A stretch of 5,427 bases of DNA from a virus (Duplodnaviria; Heunggongvirae; Uroviricota; Caudoviricetes). Made by a program: the position numbers and the translations under genes. Positions 1-4,510 of this stretch are shown in pieces. The stretch lies in IMG/VR virus record IMGVR_UViG_2534681662_000019, one strand, 5' to 3'. The notes under the pieces were generated by a model. The model saw only the letters and a list, made by a program, of their open reading frames with translations, searched no databases and had not been told where the DNA came from. Each line of letters starts with the position of its first letter. Position 1 is the first letter of the stretch.

Positions 1-330
1 CCGGACTGTACCAGCGAAAACGGCACCCTGTCCGAACGCCGGCGGGCTGCCGCGAATAAAATGCGTATGACCGGCAATCTGAGTCGGCGCTTTTATGAAT
101 GGCTGGCTGCGCAGTACGGTTTTACCGTCAGGCTGACGGATTCCACAGAAGGCCAGTGGGTTACGCAGGTCAATATTTACGGTATTAAAAATTATCGCAA
201 CGCAACGGTGCTGGATAATGTTCTGACGCCGTTACGTGTTTATGAATCGGGTGCGCTGGAATGTTTACTGGAGAAATATAAACCCGCGCATCAGATTTAT
301 AAATTTGTTTACCATGACGGAGATAACTAA
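1..330 (+). CDS. 3'-terminal part of a phage tail/baseplate protein gene (Mu gene-48-like); 5' end lies upstream of the window
   Basis: Frame 1 is open from base 1 with no stop before the ATG at 61 listed in the ORF track, so the gene probably starts upstream. Its TAA stop (328-330) overlaps the S start codon as TAATG, a coupling typical of phage late operons. Product assignment is by position only. Confidence 0.55.
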   Translation, partial: PDCTSENGTLSERRRAAANKMRMTGNLSRRFYEWLAAQYGFTVRLTDSTEGQWVTQVNIYGIKNYRNATVLDNVLTPLRVYESGALECLLEKYKPAHQIYKFVYHDGDN

Positions 331-1865
331 TGTTTTATATTGATAACGACAGCGGCGTAACCGTCATGCCGCCCGTATCCGCCCAGCGTAGTGCTATCGT
401 TCGCTGGTTTTCAGAAGGTGACGGGAATAATGCTATCACATGGCCCGGCATGGACTGGTTTAATATTGTGCAGGCGGAGTTATTAAACACGCTGAAAGAA
501 GCCGGTATTCAACCGGATAAAACAAAATTAAACCAGCTTGCACTGTCCATTAAAGCCATTATGAGCAATAACGCGCTGCTGATAAAAAATAACCTCAGCG
601 AAATTAAAACTGCCGGGGCATCAGCACAGCGTACAGCACGTGAAAATCTGGATATCTGGGATGCCAGCCTGAACAAAAAAGGCCTCGTTCAGCTAACCAG
701 TGCCACTGACAGCCCCAGTGAAACGCTGGCAGCCACCGCAAAAGCGGTGAAAATTGCGATGGATAATGCCAATGCCCGTCTGGCAAAAGAGCGGAACGGA
801 GCAGATATTCCCAATAAACCGCTGTTTATCCAAAACCTCGGTTTGCAGGAAACAGTAAACAAGGCTGGTAACGCCGTTCAGCGTTCCGGCGATAAAATGA
901 CCGGAGAACTGAAAATTGGCACGGTGAATGCGCTGCGAATTTTCAATGATGCCTTCGGTCTTATTTTCCGTCGTTCAGAAGAGTACCTTCATTTCATCCC
1001 TACGGCTGAAGGACAAGGCGAAAACGGTGATATCGGCCCATTAAGGCCATTCGCTATAAATCTGAGAACAGGTGCTATATCTGTCAGCCACGGGGCCAAA
1101 ATTGATGGTGGGCTGGCGCTTGGTACAGATAACGCACTGGGCGGTAATTCCATTACTCTCGGAGATAACGACACTGGTATTAAACAGGGCGGCGACGGTG
1201 TCCTTTTATTCTATTCAAATGGACAACTGGCATTTGGGCTTCAACCCGCATCTGCTGATTTTTATAAGCGGGTTGCATATATTCATCAGGGAATAATTCC
1301 TGATGGAAGTGGCGCATTTGCAGACCAGTTGAATAATGCCACCGCGCCTTTTGTTCAGACGCAGTTTGCCTGGAATCCCACTCCTGGTGGTCATTACGTG
1401 CCGATAGTTAAGGGCTTGTCCATTCGCAATGGACAGGGCTATCCCGGCGCGGTCAGCTTTGGGTATTTACTGACAGAACAGTATGGATTTCCGGTTCCAT
1501 GTATTCATATGCGTGGCGATGGCGGTAATGATGCTTTATGGCAGTTTAACCCGAACGATAAATCCTTTATTTCACCGGGTGCTCTTATTGCGGGTGGCGT
1601 CCATTATAACACCGATGGAAATATATTTGGTGGGTGCTGGGGTTCAAACTTAAATGATTACCTGAATAGTTCTTTTATCAGAAATGTGCGTCTGGGAGGC
1701 AGACGTTCTGACGTATTATATCGCGGAGGACTTTGCGAACCAGGTAATGGTCATGTGACAACAGGATTGCAAATTATTGGTGAGGTTGATGGAGATGACT
1801 GGATGGTGTCACGACCACTACAAAAATACATTTCTGGTAACTGGTATAACGTTGAACAGGCATAG
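330..1865 (+). CDS. S: Tail fibre protein S: constant N-terminal part (Sc, about 330-838) fused in frame to the variable part Sv inside the invertible segment
   Basis: 511-aa ORF with ATG overlapping the upstream stop. It reads through gixL (826-851) as ...FIQNLGLQETVNKAGNAV... It shares a Gly-rich block (ALGGNSITLGDNDTGIKQGGDGVL) and a C-terminal block (GLQIIGEVDGDD...WYNVEQA) with the minus-strand S'v cassette. Followed 15 nt later by a tail-fibre assembly gene. Confidence 0.9.
   Translation: MFYIDNDSGVTVMPPVSAQRSAIVRWFSEGDGNNAITWPGMDWFNIVQAELLNTLKEAGIQPDKTKLNQLALSIKAIMSNNALLIKNNLSEIKTAGASAQRTARENLDIWDASLNKKGLVQLTSATDSPSETLAATAKAVKIAMDNANARLAKERNGADIPNKPLFIQNLGLQETVNKAGNAVQRSGDKMTGELKIGTVNALRIFNDAFGLIFRRSEEYLHFIPTAEGQGENGDIGPLRPFAINLRTGAISVSHGAKIDGGLALGTDNALGGNSITLGDNDTGIKQGGDGVLLFYSNGQLAFGLQPASADFYKRVAYIHQGIIPDGSGAFADQLNNATAPFVQTQFAWNPTPGGHYVPIVKGLSIRNGQGYPGAVSFGYLLTEQYGFPVPCIHMRGDGGNDALWQFNPNDKSFISPGALIAGGVHYNTDGNIFGGCWGSNLNDYLNSSFIRNVRLGGRRSDVLYRGGLCEPGNGHVTTGLQIIGEVDGDDWMVSRPLQKYISGNWYNVEQA
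826..851. other. gixL: gixL recombination site for Gin invertase (TTATCCAAAACC-TC-GGTTTGCAGGAA)
   Basis: 26-bp site with two 12-bp half-sites around a central TC dinucleotide (838-839). It matches the gix/hix half-site pattern as I recall it and is present in inverted orientation at 3837-3862. It lies inside the S coding sequence, as expected for the Sc/Sv junction. Confidence 0.85.
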
Positions 1866-1880
1866 CCATCAGGAGAATAT

Positions 1881-2408
1881 ATGCAACATCTGAAAAATAT
1901 TACCGCCGGAAACCCCAAAACCATTGAGCAGTATCAGCTTACGAAAAAAGCTGGCGTTATCTGGCTATATACAGAAGACGGTAAAAACTGGTATGACGAA
2001 TTAAAAAACTTTCAGGATGATACTTTAAAAATAGCTTATGACCAGAAGGGGATTATTCGTTGTATTGAGAAAGACGTATCAATGCTTAACCCTGACGGGT
2101 TAAGTGTTGTTGAGTTACCGAATATAACAGCCAACCGTCGCGCCGATATCTCGGGAAACTGGAAGTTTCTGGATGGTAAAGTAGTAAAGCGGGAATATAC
2201 AAAACAGGAACTGCAACAGCAGGCAGAGTTACAAAAAGCCGCTTTGCTTTCCGAAGCGGAGTCTGTGATTCAACCGCTGGAACGTGCTGTCAGACTGAAT
2301 ATGGCAACTGATGAGGAACGCACACGACTGGAATCATGGGAACGCTACAGCGTTATGGTCAGCCGTGTGGATACTGCAAAGCCTGAATGGCCACAGAAAC
2401 CAGAATAA
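1881..2408 (+). CDS. U: Tail fibre assembly protein U (chaperone for S)
   Basis: 175-aa ORF with AGGAG (1871-1875) 5 nt upstream of the ATG. Clear paralogue of the minus-strand 177-aa ORF (both start MQHLKNI..GNPKT.EQYQLTK...[12 protein letters not shown] and share ITANRRAD). Position directly after the fibre gene. Confidence 0.9.
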
Positions 2409-2417
2409 CAACAAATT

Positions 2418-2440
2418 AAGGCCCGTACGGGCCTTTTCTT
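2418..2440. terminator. Bidirectional rho-independent terminator between the convergent U and U' genes
   Basis: Hairpin aaGGCCC-gtac-GGGCCtt (2418-2435) followed by TTTTCTT on the + strand and preceded by an A/T-rich run (TTAATTTGTTGTT on the - strand). It sits in the 30-bp gap between the U stop (2406-2408) and the U' stop (2439-2441). Confidence 0.6.
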
Positions 2441-2972
2441 ATTCTGGTGGTTCCGGGAATGTTACAGGAAGAACCGAGGTATCAGTTGTCTCAACCTGTT
2501 GCACGTATCGCATCCAGTTCATCAGTTGCTGTCTGTCTGAATCAGTGATAATCCCCAAAGTAAGCTGTGTTTGCCAGAACTGCGTTTTTTCTCTGGCCTG
2601 CTGTAATAATATTTTTTTCTGGTTTTCCGTCTGTAGGCGCAACTCTTCTTCGGTATATACACGTTTAATGACTGCGCCATCTTTAAACATCCATTTACCT
2701 GAGTCGTCAGCACGCCGGTTGGCGGTAATATCAGGAATCTCAACGACGCTATAACCTTCAGGGTTAAGTGTGGAGGCATCTTTGGTTATGGCAACAATAA
2801 TATTATTTTCGTCGTAAACAATCTTTATGGTGTCTTCCTGAAAGTTATTTACTTCCTCATACCAGTTTTTACCGTCTTCTGTATATAACCAGATAACATC
2901 AAAATTCTTTGTTAGCTGATATTGCTCTTTTGTTTTTGGATTTCCTGACTTAATATTTTTTAAATGCTGCAT
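2439..2972 (-). CDS. U': Tail fibre assembly protein U' (chaperone for the alternative fibre S')
   Basis: 177-aa ORF on the minus strand, paralogous to U. Its ATG (2970-2972) lies 1 nt after the S'v stop codon (TAA, complement of 2976-2978), with AGGTG just upstream on the minus strand. Confidence 0.9.
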
Positions 2973-2975
2973 AAT

Positions 2976-3848
2976 TTACACCTGTGCGACGTTATACCAT
3001 GTGCCATTGATGTATTTTTGTATTGGTCTGAAGATGGCTTCATCATCGCCATCTACTTCACCAATGATTCTTAATCCGGTAATTGCGTGTCCGGCTTTTT
3101 CATAACGACCACCACGCGCCATCAATTGAACAACACGCGTACCCAGGCGAACATCTTTCACATAGCGGGAATCAAAATTCCCCCAGTTGCTGGGTTGTAT
3201 CTGACCGTTAACAGCAAATATTACTGAGTTATCTGTATTTCGCTGACTATAGAAATGCCAGCCAGAATCATCGCCAAGCTCTGCAACAGTTGGCCTTGAC
3301 GAAGCGCCCCATAAATTAAACCCTACGTTCTTCGTGGAGTTGTTGGAGCTGGATAGCGTGAATTTTTTACCATCCCCGGCCTGAATATTTTTAAAAGCAA
3401 TAGCCACTCCATTCTGAAAGCGGAATACACGCTGACTATTAGCATAAACATCCAGAATACCGTCTCCATTCTGTTTAAATCCGGTGTCATTATCACCAAG
3501 AACAATAGAGCTACCACCTAACGCATTCGTCGTACCAACTCCAAGACTGCCATTAATGACGGCATTTACCAGAATATTTAGTGCATCCCATTTCAGCGTC
3601 ATCAGGTCTTTTGTTGTGGTGCTCTGGCGGCTTCTCCATTTGAAATATTCATTGCCGTTGTCGCCTGTTTCAAACCACATGTATGAATCAGTGTCACCAT
3701 CGGCATCATTTTTAAATCCAATCTTCGCCCAGTCAGTATTTCGAATCCAGGCAAGGATTGAGTCATTTTCAAAAGTAAGCCCACCGGACAAGGTATCGCC
3801 ATTTTTTTGCACGGCGTTACCAGCCTTGTTTACCGTTTCCTGCAAACC
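2976..3848 (-). CDS. S': S'v: promoterless, startless variable C-terminal cassette of the alternative tail fibre, expressed only after G inversion as an Sc-S'v fusion
   Basis: Minus-strand open frame homologous to Sv at both ends (QETVNKAGNAVQ... and ...GLRIIGEVDGDD...WYNVAQV). It has no ATG or RBS of its own; the ORF track's M at 3845 is a TTG that is the Leu codon of the shared ...NLGLQETV... junction. The frame is closed one codon outside the crossover by a TAA (complement of 3855-3857) within gixR. Confidence 0.85.
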   Translation of the reverse strand, partial: GLQETVNKAGNAVQKNGDTLSGGLTFENDSILAWIRNTDWAKIGFKNDADGDTDSYMWFETGDNGNEYFKWRSRQSTTTKDLMTLKWDALNILVNAVINGSLGVGTTNALGGSSIVLGDNDTGFKQNGDGILDVYANSQRVFRFQNGVAIAFKNIQAGDGKKFTLSSSNNSTKNVGFNLWGASSRPTVAELGDDSGWHFYSQRNTDNSVIFAVNGQIQPSNWGNFDSRYVKDVRLGTRVVQLMARGGRYEKAGHAITGLRIIGEVDGDDEAIFRPIQKYINGTWYNVAQV

Positions 3849-3870
3849 GAGGTTTTAGATAATGGCTGTT
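3835..3870 (+). promoter_or_regulatory. Candidate gin promoter overlapping gixR (-10-like GATAAT at 3858-3863)
   Basis: GATAAT hexamer inside the outer gixR half-site, about 55 nt upstream of the gin start; the -35 is weak. In the Gin/Hin/Cin family the invertase promoter is reported to overlap the adjacent recombination site. The exact hexamers here are my inference. Confidence 0.3.
3837..3862. other. gixR: gixR recombination site (TTCCTGCAAACC-GA-GGTTTTAGATAA), inverted relative to gixL
   Basis: Its reverse complement is TTATCTAAAACC-TC-GGTTTGCAGGAA, identical to gixL except for one base (C in gixL, T in gixR). Central dinucleotide at 3849-3850. Located between the S'v cassette and gin. 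Confidence 0.85.
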
Positions 3871-3916
3871 TCCGGCCTGCATGGCATGATTTGCGCTTTT
3901 AAACGGGAGATCCAGA

Positions 3917-4510
3917 GTGCTGATTGGCTATGTAAGGGTATCAACAAATGACCAGAATACAGACCTGCAACGAAACGCTCTTGTTTGTGCAGGATGTGAA
4001 CAAATATTTGAAGATAAATTAAGCGGAACAAGGACAGACAGACCTGGATTAAAGCGCGCTTTAAAGCGTCTTCAAAAAGGTGACACACTGGTTGTCTGGA
4101 AACTGGATCGCCTCGGGCGAAGCATGAAACATCTGATTTCTCTCGTCGGAGAACTACGGGAGCGAGGGATTAATTTTCGCAGCCTTACTGACAGTATTGA
4201 TACGTCATCCCCAATGGGGCGTTTTTTCTTCCACGTTATGGGTGCCCTAGCTGAAATGGAACGAGAACTAATCATCGAGCGAACGATGGCAGGACTTGCT
4301 GCCGCCAGAAATAAAGGCCGTATTGGTGGGCGACCACCTAAACTAACCAAAGCGGAATGGGAGCAGGCCGGGCGTTTATTAGCACAAGGAATCCCCCGCA
4401 AGCAGGTTGCATTGATCTACGATGTGGCCCTGTCAACTCTGTATAAAAAACACCCCGCGAAACGAACGCACATAGAAAACGACGATCGAATCAATCAAAT
4501 CGATCGGTAA
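3917..4510 (+). CDS. gin: Site-specific DNA invertase Gin (serine recombinase, resolvase/invertase family)
   Basis: ORF starting at GTG 3917 with GGGAG (3905-3909) upstream. N-terminus MLIGYVRVSTNDQ has the catalytic Ser at position 9. The catalytic domain and C-terminal helix-turn-helix (GGRPPKLTKAEWEQA...) are characteristic of Gin/Pin/Hin/Cin. Located directly beside gixR. Confidence 0.95.
   Translation: MLIGYVRVSTNDQNTDLQRNALVCAGCEQIFEDKLSGTRTDRPGLKRALKRLQKGDTLVVWKLDRLGRSMKHLISLVGELRERGINFRSLTDSIDTSSPMGRFFFHVMGALAEMERELIIERTMAGLAAARNKGRIGGRPPKLTKAEWEQAGRLLAQGIPRKQVALIYDVALSTLYKKHPAKRTHIENDDRINQIDR
3960..4075. promoter_or_regulatory. Candidate Fis-dependent recombinational enhancer (sis) within the 5' part of gin
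   Basis: In Mu the enhancer lies inside the start of the gin coding sequence. Here there are Fis-like 15-mers of the G-N13-C type with A/T-rich cores, for example GAAGATAAATTAAGC (4010-4024) and GCGCTTTAAAGCGTC (4056-4070), plus a weaker one at 3962-3976 whose centre is 48 bp from the first. The Fis motif is degenerate, so this placement is tentative. Confidence 0.25.

Follow-up and report, generated by a model that had tools for sequence, protein, structure and literature searches.

Mosaic tail-fibre ends in a Mu-type G segment, with two conserved blocks that probably bracket an exchangeable receptor-binding module

The two alternative tail-fibre ends, Sv and S'v, of a Mu-type invertible G segment are mosaics, and the two blocks that they share, an internal Gly-rich one and a C-terminal one, are probably the 'bookends' of an exchangeable receptor-binding module. 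We found them in a 5,427-nucleotide stretch of a Caudoviricetes record (IMGVR_UViG_2534681662_000019), referred to here as the window, which presents known biology in a new cassette combination. In the mechanism that we propose, the Gly-rich block (NALGGxSIxLGDNDTGxKQxGDG) would be a structural joint from which the distal trimeric beta-prism begins and at which many different tip modules could attach to differing shafts, and the C-terminal module, i.e. the last ~70 residues from (NFDS)RYVxDVRLG to the RPxQKxIxGxWYNV tail, would most likely provide the chaperone-docking site and the start of trimer folding. The latter module would travel with the fibre-binding N-domain of the chaperone (Tfa), whose C-domain would be a separate, generic module that swaps independently.

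The G segment and its inversion

The window corresponds to the right-hand end of a Mu-like phage, with the order Sc/Sv-U, U'-S'v, gin, com, mom. It is 98.7% identical at the nucleotide level to Yersinia Muvirus vB_YpM_3 over 5420 nt, and Mu aligns to only 46% of it (97.1% nt), essentially the G-segment flanks. All genes of the G-segment variant are labelled 'hypothetical protein' in vB_YpM_3, the nearest phage record. The features of the segment are the following.

330..842, + strand: Sc, the N-terminal portion of tail fibre S that stays constant (aa 1-171); shares 94% identity with Mu S aa 1-194
826..880, no strand: left inverted repeat (gix and flank), a 55-nt arm 95% complementary with 3808-3862
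843..1865, + strand: Sv, variable fibre part expressed in the window's orientation (340 aa), from the ORF
1101..1220, + strand: Gly-rich block in Sv with flanks (S aa 258-297), 40 aa, z=18 against S'v
1221..1658, + strand: variable middle of Sv (S aa 298-443), z=0.3 against the S'v middle, conservation 0.41; presumed receptor-specificity module
1659..1862, + strand: C-terminal module of Sv (S aa 444-511), from the VRLG motif to RPLQKYISGNWYNVEQA, 55% identical to S'v over 66 aligned codons
1881..2195, + strand: U N-domain (aa 1-105), fibre-binding domain according to the literature, of its own sequence type (Caudo_TAP)
2196..2408, + strand: U C-domain (aa 106-175 and stop), class A (Mu U / P2 G type) by identity matrix
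2418..2435, no strand: GC-rich palindromic hairpin where U and U' converge, AAGGCCCGTACGGGCCTT, 7-bp stem, on both strands; putatively bidirectional terminator-like
2439..2657, - strand: U' C-domain (aa 106-177 and stop), class B (Mu U' type) by identity matrix
2658..2972, - strand: U' N-domain (aa 1-105), Mu U / P2 G type by identity matrix
2979..3182, - strand: C-terminal module of S'v (aa 222-289), NFDSRYVKDVRLGT to RPIQKYINGTWYNVAQV, common to Sv
3183..3437, - strand: variable middle of S'v (aa 137-221), P2 gpH type, 95% identical to P2 gpH
3438..3557, - strand: Gly-rich block in S'v with flanks (aa 97-136), equivalent to P2 gpH aa 477-516
3558..3845, - strand: proximal part of S'v (aa 1-96), shaft of Mu Sv / P2 gpH type by Mu S similarity
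3808..3862, no strand: right inverted repeat (gix and flank), partner arm of 826-880
3917..4510, + strand: gin, serine invertase flipping the segment (Pfam Resolvase and HTH_7)

One constant fibre N-terminus, two opposed C-terminal parts and an assembly gene for each make up the layout of an invertible segment. The same layout is found in Mu, which the window further resembles in its Gin (99.5% identical over 193 aa; Pfam Resolvase E 7e-50, HTH_7 E 2e-17), in its Sc (94% to Mu S) and in inversion in natural genomes. Sc anchors the fibre to the baseplate, and the orientation of G determines whether Sv or S'v follows it; here Sc carries Pfam Phage_fiber_2 at aa 113-153 and has a match to 5YVQ_A, with E 5e-113 for the first stretch alone. 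S'v is without its own start codon and reads through the inverted repeat, whose 55 nt encode a third stretch common to both fibres, LQETVNKAGNAVQ. The Mu-type G segment inverts in vivo, as both orientations are present in sibling genomes: collinearity with the window is kept in E. coli Esc30, and in Esc31 nt 826-3862 are inverted relative to both flanks, an inversion that runs exactly between the repeat arms and results in a 460-aa Sc-S'v fusion ORF.

Shared blocks and the origin of the two cassettes

BLASTP aligns S with S'v at 33% identity over 359 columns (E 1e-39), and after removal of the N-terminus encoded by the inverted repeat the Smith-Waterman score of Sv against S'v is 313, compared to 39 +/- 6 for shuffled sequences (z=46). 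These shuffle z-scores, overall and per segment, rule out chance similarity. An earlier note on this DNA had proposed two common blocks, and both are borne out by significant alignments (z=18 for the Gly-rich block and z=26 at the C-terminus). The Gly-rich core, ALGGNSITLGDNDTGIKQGGDGVL in S (aa 269-292, nt 1134-1205) and ALGGSSIVLGDNDTGFKQNGDGIL in S'v (aa 108-131, nt 3453-3524 on the minus strand), is identical at 19 of 24 residues, and the stretch conserved across database relatives covers S254-299. The C-terminal core, GLQIIGEVDGDD...NVEQA in S (aa 479-511, nt 1764-1862) and the last 33 aa of S'v (nt 2979-3077 on the minus strand), is 70% identical at z=26. The 35 aa that precede it still score z=9, and the shared C-terminus, put at about 30 residues in the earlier note, is really a block of ~68 aa. 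All four peptides quoted there are present, with the S'v copies shifted to the positions given here from about 3470-3545 for the Gly-rich block and from 2976-3100 for the C-terminal one. Between the blocks, segment-wise shuffle tests detect no similarity between Sv and S'v in either of the two stretches (z=0.8, p=0.18; z=0.3, p=0.33), in agreement with the view that the middle differs; Sv is also longer by about 50 residues as had been stated, with 340 aa counted from LQETVNK against 289 aa for S'v, a difference of 51.

The description of Sv and S'v as diverged paralogues, by contrast, does not survive comparison with other phages. Had Sv/U and S'v/U' been duplicated in place within the G segment, with a fast-evolving middle and retained blocks, the significant overall homology, the mirror-image gene order and the 56% identity of U and U' would follow; in-place duplicates would, however, be homologous over their full length and nearest to one another. 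What we observe are inter-block regions at chance level (z=0.3 and 0.8) and, for each cassette, far closer relatives in other phages than its partner in the window. S'v is 95% identical to P2 gpH aa 381-669 (91.5% at the nucleotide level), and the N-domain of U' is 92% identical to that of Mu U and 90% to that of P2 G but only 70% to that of U. The Sv tip type is present in many E. coli/Salmonella prophage fibres, and in other prophages the tip is found on three shaft families (PF03406, PF21446 and PF12571). Natural chimeras with breakpoints at the blocks further argue against duplication in place, which we regard as unlikely. S'v is itself composite in its matches: its aa 1-109 are 84% identical to Mu S aa 172-280, with Pfam Gp34_trimer at aa 39-110, and a T4 gp34-like stretch (gp34 match) at aa 180-222 lies inside the variable middle. 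Judged from these relationships, the Sv and S'v cassettes are mosaics from horizontal exchange and not in-place duplicates, and the entire fibre family may go back to an ancient common ancestor.

Conservation of the blocks could in principle reflect DNA and not protein, either through recent exchange that keeps them alike or because they are mainly DNA-level homology patches. Short inverted repeats at the 3' ends of the fibre genes over 48 nt (81%) and in the 5' halves of the Tfa genes over 348 nt (71%), the clustering of breakpoints at conserved stretches and the somewhat lower pS at Tfa codons 1-40 (0.65) all point in that direction. Nevertheless, across the blocks amino acid identity is 0.70-0.79 with nucleotide identity of 69-70% and saturated synonymous sites (pS 0.71-0.83), as compared to 92% nucleotide identity and pS 0.35 for the codons of the true inverted repeat. 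By block, pS is 0.83 at an amino acid identity of 0.79 in the Gly-rich block and 0.71-0.76 in the C-terminal module. Synonymous-site saturation rules out gene conversion between the inverted cassettes and therefore indicates purifying selection at the protein level; moreover, the Gly-rich block is conserved at the protein level outside invertible segments (P2, S16 gp37). A DNA-level origin of the conservation thus seems very improbable to us, and a role of the blocks as crossover sites would be a consequence of protein conservation and not its cause, which is compatible with their being the bookends of an exchangeable module.

Of the 16 tip clusters, 6 have the Gly-rich block; it lies 126-243 aa before the C-terminus and follows at least four upstream contexts. 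DNA identity switches at this block in four pairs (L054+/P2, L080+/L023-, window/L018+ and L080+/window), identity between S'v and Mu S ends 30-60 nt upstream of it, and breakpoint endpoints in its vicinity peak at -80 to -1 nt, as counted over pairs and hence not as independent events. This clustering argues for the block as the entry joint of a swappable tip. In a functional P2:S16 chimera the fusion point was the homology between gpH 481-516 and S16 gp37 564-599 (PMC9594776), and the block in S'v with its flanks (gpH aa 477-516) overlaps this fusion region. The block also matches in sequence the N-terminal part (6F45_A aa 20-58, E 1.2e-5) of the crystallised S16 gp37 fragment, a trimeric beta-helix opening with a beta-prism 'triangular domain', and would thus adopt a beta-prism fold. 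The assignment draws on this 39-residue match because an AF2 monomer of Sv aa 250-511 from a 36-row alignment is poor (mean pLDDT 52.7, pTM 0.26): the blocks are not placeable in 3D in it, with only the strands after the Gly-rich block reaching pLDDT 74-80, and a Foldseek comparison of this model with the 6F45 chains lends weak support, with prob at 0.87-0.98 and TMt at 0.51-0.53 for E values of 0.1-0.6.

The fibre C-terminus and its chaperone

Both chaperones belong to Pfam Caudo_TAP (PF02413; U E 8e-35, U' E 2e-31) and are 56% identical overall (E 7e-70). They are most alike at the N-terminus and diverge toward the C-terminus, as noted earlier: identity falls from 82% (aa 1-40) through 63% (aa 41-105) to 37% (aa 106 to the end), with 70% for aa 1-105 together. 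The U N-domain is 69-72% identical to the N-domains of U', Mu U, Mu U' and P2 G, whereas its C-domain is 90% identical to that of Mu U, 83% to that of P2 G and 37% to that of U'. The C-domain of U' is 64% identical to that of Mu U' and 34-37% to class A. U' thus combines an N-domain of P2 G/Mu U type with a C-domain of Mu U' type, two known Tfa types in one chimeric protein. Such domain-wise chimeras, together with a breakpoint peak at Tfa aa ~100-130, indicate two Tfa domains that are exchanged independently.

U is 77% identical over its whole length to the crystallised Tfa 5YVQ_B (E 2e-85), which belongs to the Mu fibre-Tfa complex of North et al. 2019, with its modular Tfa model. In Mu, the counterparts of the Sv C-terminus by alignment are S 435-503 and S' 411-485. 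In published summaries of the Mu S-U structure 5YVQ, the Tfa N-domain binds the distal fibre tip with one Tfa per fibre chain, i.e. in a 3:3 arrangement, and remains bound, and the C-domain is described as a generic helical trimerisation domain (PMC9608196, PMC7291167, PMC8174754). The N-domain is the more conserved half within the Mu/P2/P1 group (mean 75-78% vs 62%), the opposite of the cross-family picture in PMC9608196.

To follow fibre and chaperone together, we surveyed mainly 80 IMG/VR loci, a set biased to close relatives of U, to which a contig scan added 6. Filtering on a terminal W[YS]N left 100 fibre-Tfa pairs, and all 16 of their tip clusters have the RPxQxxIxGxWYN tail. Over 43 non-redundant loci the last 17 aa have a mean identity of 73%, with 24-40% upstream. 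Conservation within the quoted C-terminal peptides is correspondingly uneven, as the GLQIIGEVDGDD half scores 0.39 and is not family-wide, compared to 0.75 for the last ~17 aa. Fibres whose Tfa N-domains are 84-93% identical have only the NFDSRYVxDVRLG motif, ~70 aa from the fibre end, and the RPxQKxIxGTWYNVA tail in common.

Recombination breakpoints among the 43 non-redundant loci fall into four clusters: the Gly-rich block, NFDSRYVxDVRLG, the fibre/Tfa junction and the Tfa N/C border. Counted over pairs, and so not as independent events, 112 lie between -250 and -151 nt, 32 fall at Tfa aa ~100-130 and just 2 in Tfa nt +50 to +299; they bracket a unit made of the last ~70 aa of the fibre and the Tfa N-domain, with almost none inside the latter. 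One breakpoint peak lies at the 5' edge of the S'v C-terminal module, and this module is found behind at least three different upstream tip parts with the same type of Tfa N-domain. The last 17 fibre residues correlate moderately with Tfa aa 41-105 (Spearman 0.41), and Mantel tests are significant but inseparable from linkage: the fibre and Tfa coding regions adjoin, with a gap of 1-15 nt in 114/116 unique pairs, which confounds the co-inheritance of fibre C-terminus and Tfa N-domain. Pairing is also not strictly specific, as the last 45 residues of the L055- fibre are those of L007-, yet its Tfa N-domain is 66% and not 90% identical to U'.

The earlier suggestion that the fibre C-terminus is a chaperone-docking or assembly element is consistent with the 5YVQ summaries, the motifs and the breakpoints; the contact itself, of the Tfa N-domain with the C-terminal module of the fibre, is a predicted one. 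A tail that instead contacts the receptor, for example a conserved feature of the LPS inner core, would suit a C-terminus that forms the distal fibre end. Mu, P2 and the window's closest relatives, the vB_YpM phages, use the LPS core (PMC10434027), and Tfa is reported to assist LPS binding (PMC8174754), which would bring tip, chaperone and receptor close together. However, the same tail occurs in fibres of very different host range (Mu G+ and G-, P2 and P1-type), it is the most conserved segment of the fibre although the greatest variability would be expected of receptor-binding surfaces, and the C-terminal module is co-inherited with the Tfa N-domain, so that we give a receptor contact little credence and favor docking of the chaperone. 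Extending this, the last ~70 aa of the fibre and the Tfa N-domain might form a portable, co-adapted docking unit, such that any module placed between the Gly-rich joint and NFDSRYVxDVRLG could be folded by the same chaperone, a proposal that we put forward tentatively.

Relation to known fibres and significance

Mu S and S' likewise have a C-terminal module of ~75 aa in common and nothing else; they are without the Gly-rich block, so only one of the two blocks is common in Mu. Compared to Mu, the G(-) cassette of the window has a P2-gpH-type tip behind a proximal 109 aa like those of the Mu G(+) Sv, and the G(+) tip is of a type common in E. coli prophages. P2 gpH/gpG resembles the G(-) cassette in S'v (95% to gpH 381-669) and in the U' N-domain (90% to that of gpG), and differs from it in that the window has a U' C-domain of Mu U' class (34% to gpG), the fibre N-terminus of Mu Sc and inversion-dependent expression. 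The Mu fibre-Tfa complex 5YVQ is matched by U at 77% and by the fibre C-terminus (Mu S 435-503), and its domain modularity is visible in the window as chimeras. S16 gp37 (6F45) matches the Gly-rich block with ALGSASIAIGDNDTGLRWGGDGIV (E 1e-5) but then terminates in an interdigitated domain with the gp38 adhesin as its cap, unlike the window fibres, which continue into their own tip and then into the Tfa-associated C-terminal module. In the P2:S16 'HomA' chimera this Gly-rich homology served as a working fusion point (PMC9594776).

The mosaic fibres of P1, P2, Mu, lambda and T-even phages are the same in principle, the window being one more combination. Work by Haggard-Ljungquist in 1992 and by Sandmeier in 1992 and 1994 reportedly described the exchange of fibre segments among these phages, with conserved motifs at the borders. 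The common blocks are thus known family-wide junction motifs, which makes the original observation correct and largely ordinary.

Practical value is accordingly modest, and the current view of fibre mosaicism and Tfa function is unchanged. For host-range engineering of P2/Mu/P1-type fibres, three natural junctions can be named, the Gly-rich joint, NFDSRYVxDVRLG and the Tfa N/C border, and the resulting map indicates which chaperone half must go with which fibre part. If the docking unit is real, a two-junction 'plug-and-play' rule would follow, by which Mu/P2/P1-type fibres could be retargeted with the chaperone unchanged, and the chimeric U', with its P2-G-type N-domain and Mu-U'-type C-domain, would be a natural example of it. 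Overall, a G-segment variant is now annotated in which one of the two host-range states carries a P2-type tip, presumably LPS-core-binding.

Layout and switching of the invertible segment

Gene prediction resolves the window into an ordered series of features:

61-330, 3' end of a baseplate gene
330-1865 (+), fibre gene S, constant part Sc followed by variable end Sv
1881-2408 (+), U, Tfa assembly chaperone of Sv
2439-2972 (-), U', Tfa assembly chaperone of S'v
2976-3845 (-), S'v, the alternative variable end, without a start of its own
3917-4510, serine invertase (Gin)
after the invertase, com and mom

A 55-nt inverted repeat with 95% complementary arms (826-880 and 3808-3862) is present, and Gin is 99.5% identical to that of phage Mu. 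The Mu-like Yersinia phage vB_YpM_3 matches the full window at 98.7% identity; Mu itself aligns with just 46%, in essence the flanks of the G segment. Layout, repeat, Gin identity and the restricted Mu match thus identify a Mu-type G segment carrying non-Mu cassettes. The prophage in the E. coli genome Esc30 is collinear with the window, and the one in the near-identical sibling genome Esc31 has nt 826-3862 in reverse with respect to its two flanks (1201-4237 of that locus), with Sc joined to the P2-H-type S'v as a 460-aa fusion ORF. These opposite orientations are direct evidence of in vivo flipping, and the switch is active in nature. Sv is left in Esc31 as an ORF without a promoter, and its annotation there is a gene of 322 aa.

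The Gin ORF has 197 aa, versus 193 in Mu, in identical register with a 4-residue C-terminal extension (…DDRINQIDR); its annotated start in vB_YpM_3 lies 24 nt further upstream. The record of vB_YpM_3, the closest phage (MT374852, 1830-5345), labels S, U, U' and S'v "hypothetical protein", with S'v as a stand-alone CDS, and PMC10434027 handles this G segment generically, mentioning neither non-Mu cassettes nor a P2-H-like one. U and U' converge on a 30-nt gap that contains a perfect GC-rich palindrome, AAGGCCCGTACGGGCCTT (2418-2435); the palindrome resembles a terminator on each strand and would halt transcription in either orientation. The S'v stop is 3 nt from the U' start (2958-3000, -), and the sole Shine-Dalgarno-like sequence for U' (AGGTG) sits within the last two S'v codons, which are thus also constrained at the RNA level; the S-U spacer has 15 nt with its own GGAG (1840-1895, +). 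Fibre and chaperone share a reading frame in both pairs. A 147-aa ORF (2311-2754, +) that starts in the 3' end of U, crosses the hairpin and continues through U' in antisense is most likely spurious.

Shared blocks and the Gly-rich junction

The cores of the two blocks common to Sv and S'v are placed as follows:

1134-1205 (+), Gly-rich core in S, aa 269-292
1764-1862 (+), C-terminal core in S, aa 479-511
3453-3524 (-), Gly-rich core in S'v, aa 108-131
2979-3077 (-), C-terminal core in S'v, aa 257-289

S and S'v align in BLASTP at E 1e-39 and, with the repeat-encoded N-terminus removed, the local alignment of Sv with S'v scores 46 SD above shuffles, bearing out the significance of the two blocks proposed in the earlier note, whose four quoted peptides were all found. 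In a segment-wise shuffle test z is 18 for the Gly-rich block with its flanks, 26 for the C-terminal core and 9 for the 35 aa preceding that core; the repeat-to-block stretch (z=0.8) and the middle between the blocks (z=0.3), which had been said to differ, cannot be told from shuffled sequence. Sv exceeds S'v by 51 aa, matching the earlier estimate of about 50. The observation as a whole stands with two amendments: the C-terminal block is indeed shared but spans ~68 aa rather than about 30, and a third shared stretch is the product of the inverted repeat only. The GLQIIGEVDGDD half of the C-terminal block is not family-wide (database-wide conservation 0.39), being common to Sv and P2-H types only.

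By Nei-Gojobori counts, amino-acid identities of the Gly-rich and C-terminal cores are 0.79 and 0.70 and their synonymous difference proportions (pS) 0.83 and 0.71, so that synonymous sites are saturated in both, versus 92% DNA identity and pS 0.35 in repeat-encoded codons. Protein-level selection, and not recent conversion between the inverted copies, therefore maintains the blocks.

We compared 86 related loci, yielding 116 unique fibre-Tfa pairs (43 non-redundant). Of the 16 tip clusters, 6 have the Gly-rich block; it lies 126 to 243 aa before the C-terminus and behind at least four kinds of upstream sequence, and is absent from Mu S and S'. In natural chimeras DNA identity changes at the block: it rises from 56% to 93% between locus L054+ and P2 H and from 53% to 98% between L080+ and L023-, and falls from 98% to 36% between the window's Sv and L018+ and from 73% to 21% between L080+ and the window's Sv; between S'v and Mu S it is lost 30-60 nt upstream. 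Endpoints of high-scoring pairs (HSPs) near the block peak mainly at -80 to -1 nt, and the conserved stretch around it is, database-wide, S 254-299. The block matches S16 gp37 (6F45_A aa 20-58, E 1e-5), whose crystallised fragment is a trimeric beta-helix starting with a beta-prism "triangular domain" (PMC6851490). Cunliffe et al. (PMC9594776) aligned gpH 481-516, corresponding to S'v 101-136, with gp37 564-599 and joined the two proteins at this homology to make a P2:S16 fibre that is functional. The Gly-rich block marks a junction between fibre modules.

The fibre C-terminus and its chaperones

Mean identity among the 43 loci is 73% for the last 17 fibre residues, versus 24-40% for upstream segments, and every tip type terminates in RPxQ(K/Y)xIxGxWYN(V/A)xxx. 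Six different tips occur on fibres whose chaperone N-domains (aa 1-105) are 84-93% identical to U', and have in common only P....NFDSRYVxDVRLG (~70 aa from the fibre end), two glycines and RPxQKxIxGTWYNVA. HSPs of 88% identity or more have 376 internal endpoints, which are pairwise counts and not independent events: 112 fall 151-250 nt before the fibre stop, at the NFDSRYV/VRLG motif, 28 around the fibre stop/Tfa start and 32 at Tfa aa ~100-130, with only 2 in the remainder of the Tfa N-domain. The likeness of Mu S and S' is confined to the same C-terminal module of ~75 aa (38% identity, E 2e-7). According to published summaries of the structure of Mu S-U, each fibre chain carries one Tfa, bound by its N-domain to the distal tip, and the C-domain, which is not resolved, is probably a helical module for trimerisation (PMC9608196, PMC7291167, PMC8174754); Tfa, by these summaries, remains bound in the virion. 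Together these data lend indirect support to the earlier note's reasonable suggestion that the conserved C-terminus is probably a chaperone docking or assembly element, with a footprint of about 70, not 30, residues. Fibre-tail and Tfa identities correlate moderately (0.41), co-inheritance is confounded by adjacency of the coding regions, and one locus (L055-) shares its fibre end with another but differs greatly from it in the Tfa N-domain. A poor AF2 monomer model (pLDDT 52.7) retrieved the Mu S-U structure (5YVQ_A, E 2.5e-7) and 6F45 gp37 (TMt ~0.5) in Foldseek, hits of little added weight.

Identity between U and U' declines from 82% (aa 1-40) to 63% (aa 41-105) and 37% (aa 106-end), the N-to-C-terminal divergence noted before. 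Over aa 1-105, U', Mu U and P2 G form one group at 90-93% (U' itself to either of the others, 90-92%), and U is 69-72% identical to all three; over aa 106-end, U, Mu U and P2 G form class A (83-93%) and U' joins Mu U' (64%), the two classes being ~35% identical (U' versus class A, 34-37%). The chaperones are thus domain chimeras, and U' (2439-2972, -) is a natural chimera with its crossover near aa 100-110.

Cassette origins

S'v shares 95% identity with P2 gpH aa 381-669, and its first 109 aa are 84% identical to Mu G(+) Sv (93-98% at the nucleotide level, 3558-3845 (-) versus Mu S). This proximal part resembles the G(+) Sv of Mu and not Mu S'v, placing a "plus-type" shaft on the opposite side of the segment relative to Mu. 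The P2-H-type S'v also matches Pfam Gp34_trimer (aa 39-110) and PDB 4UXE/5NXF (aa 180-222); these two stretches, related to T4 proximal fibre gp34, again point to mosaicism across families. Hundreds of prophage fibres in E. coli/Salmonella carry the Sv-type tip, on at least three shaft families. Among 5426 complete genomes of E. coli the exact cassette pair is present in only ~4-7, and pieces of it in 1377. Horizontal fibre-gene mosaicism, modular Tfa and the gpH/gp37 homology as a fusion point are already known; only the cassette combination and the chimeric U' are new. Since each cassette has far closer relatives elsewhere than its partner, the earlier description of Sv and S'v as diverged paralogues is unsupported in the sense of an in-place duplication, and mosaic cassettes with conserved bookends should replace that framing.
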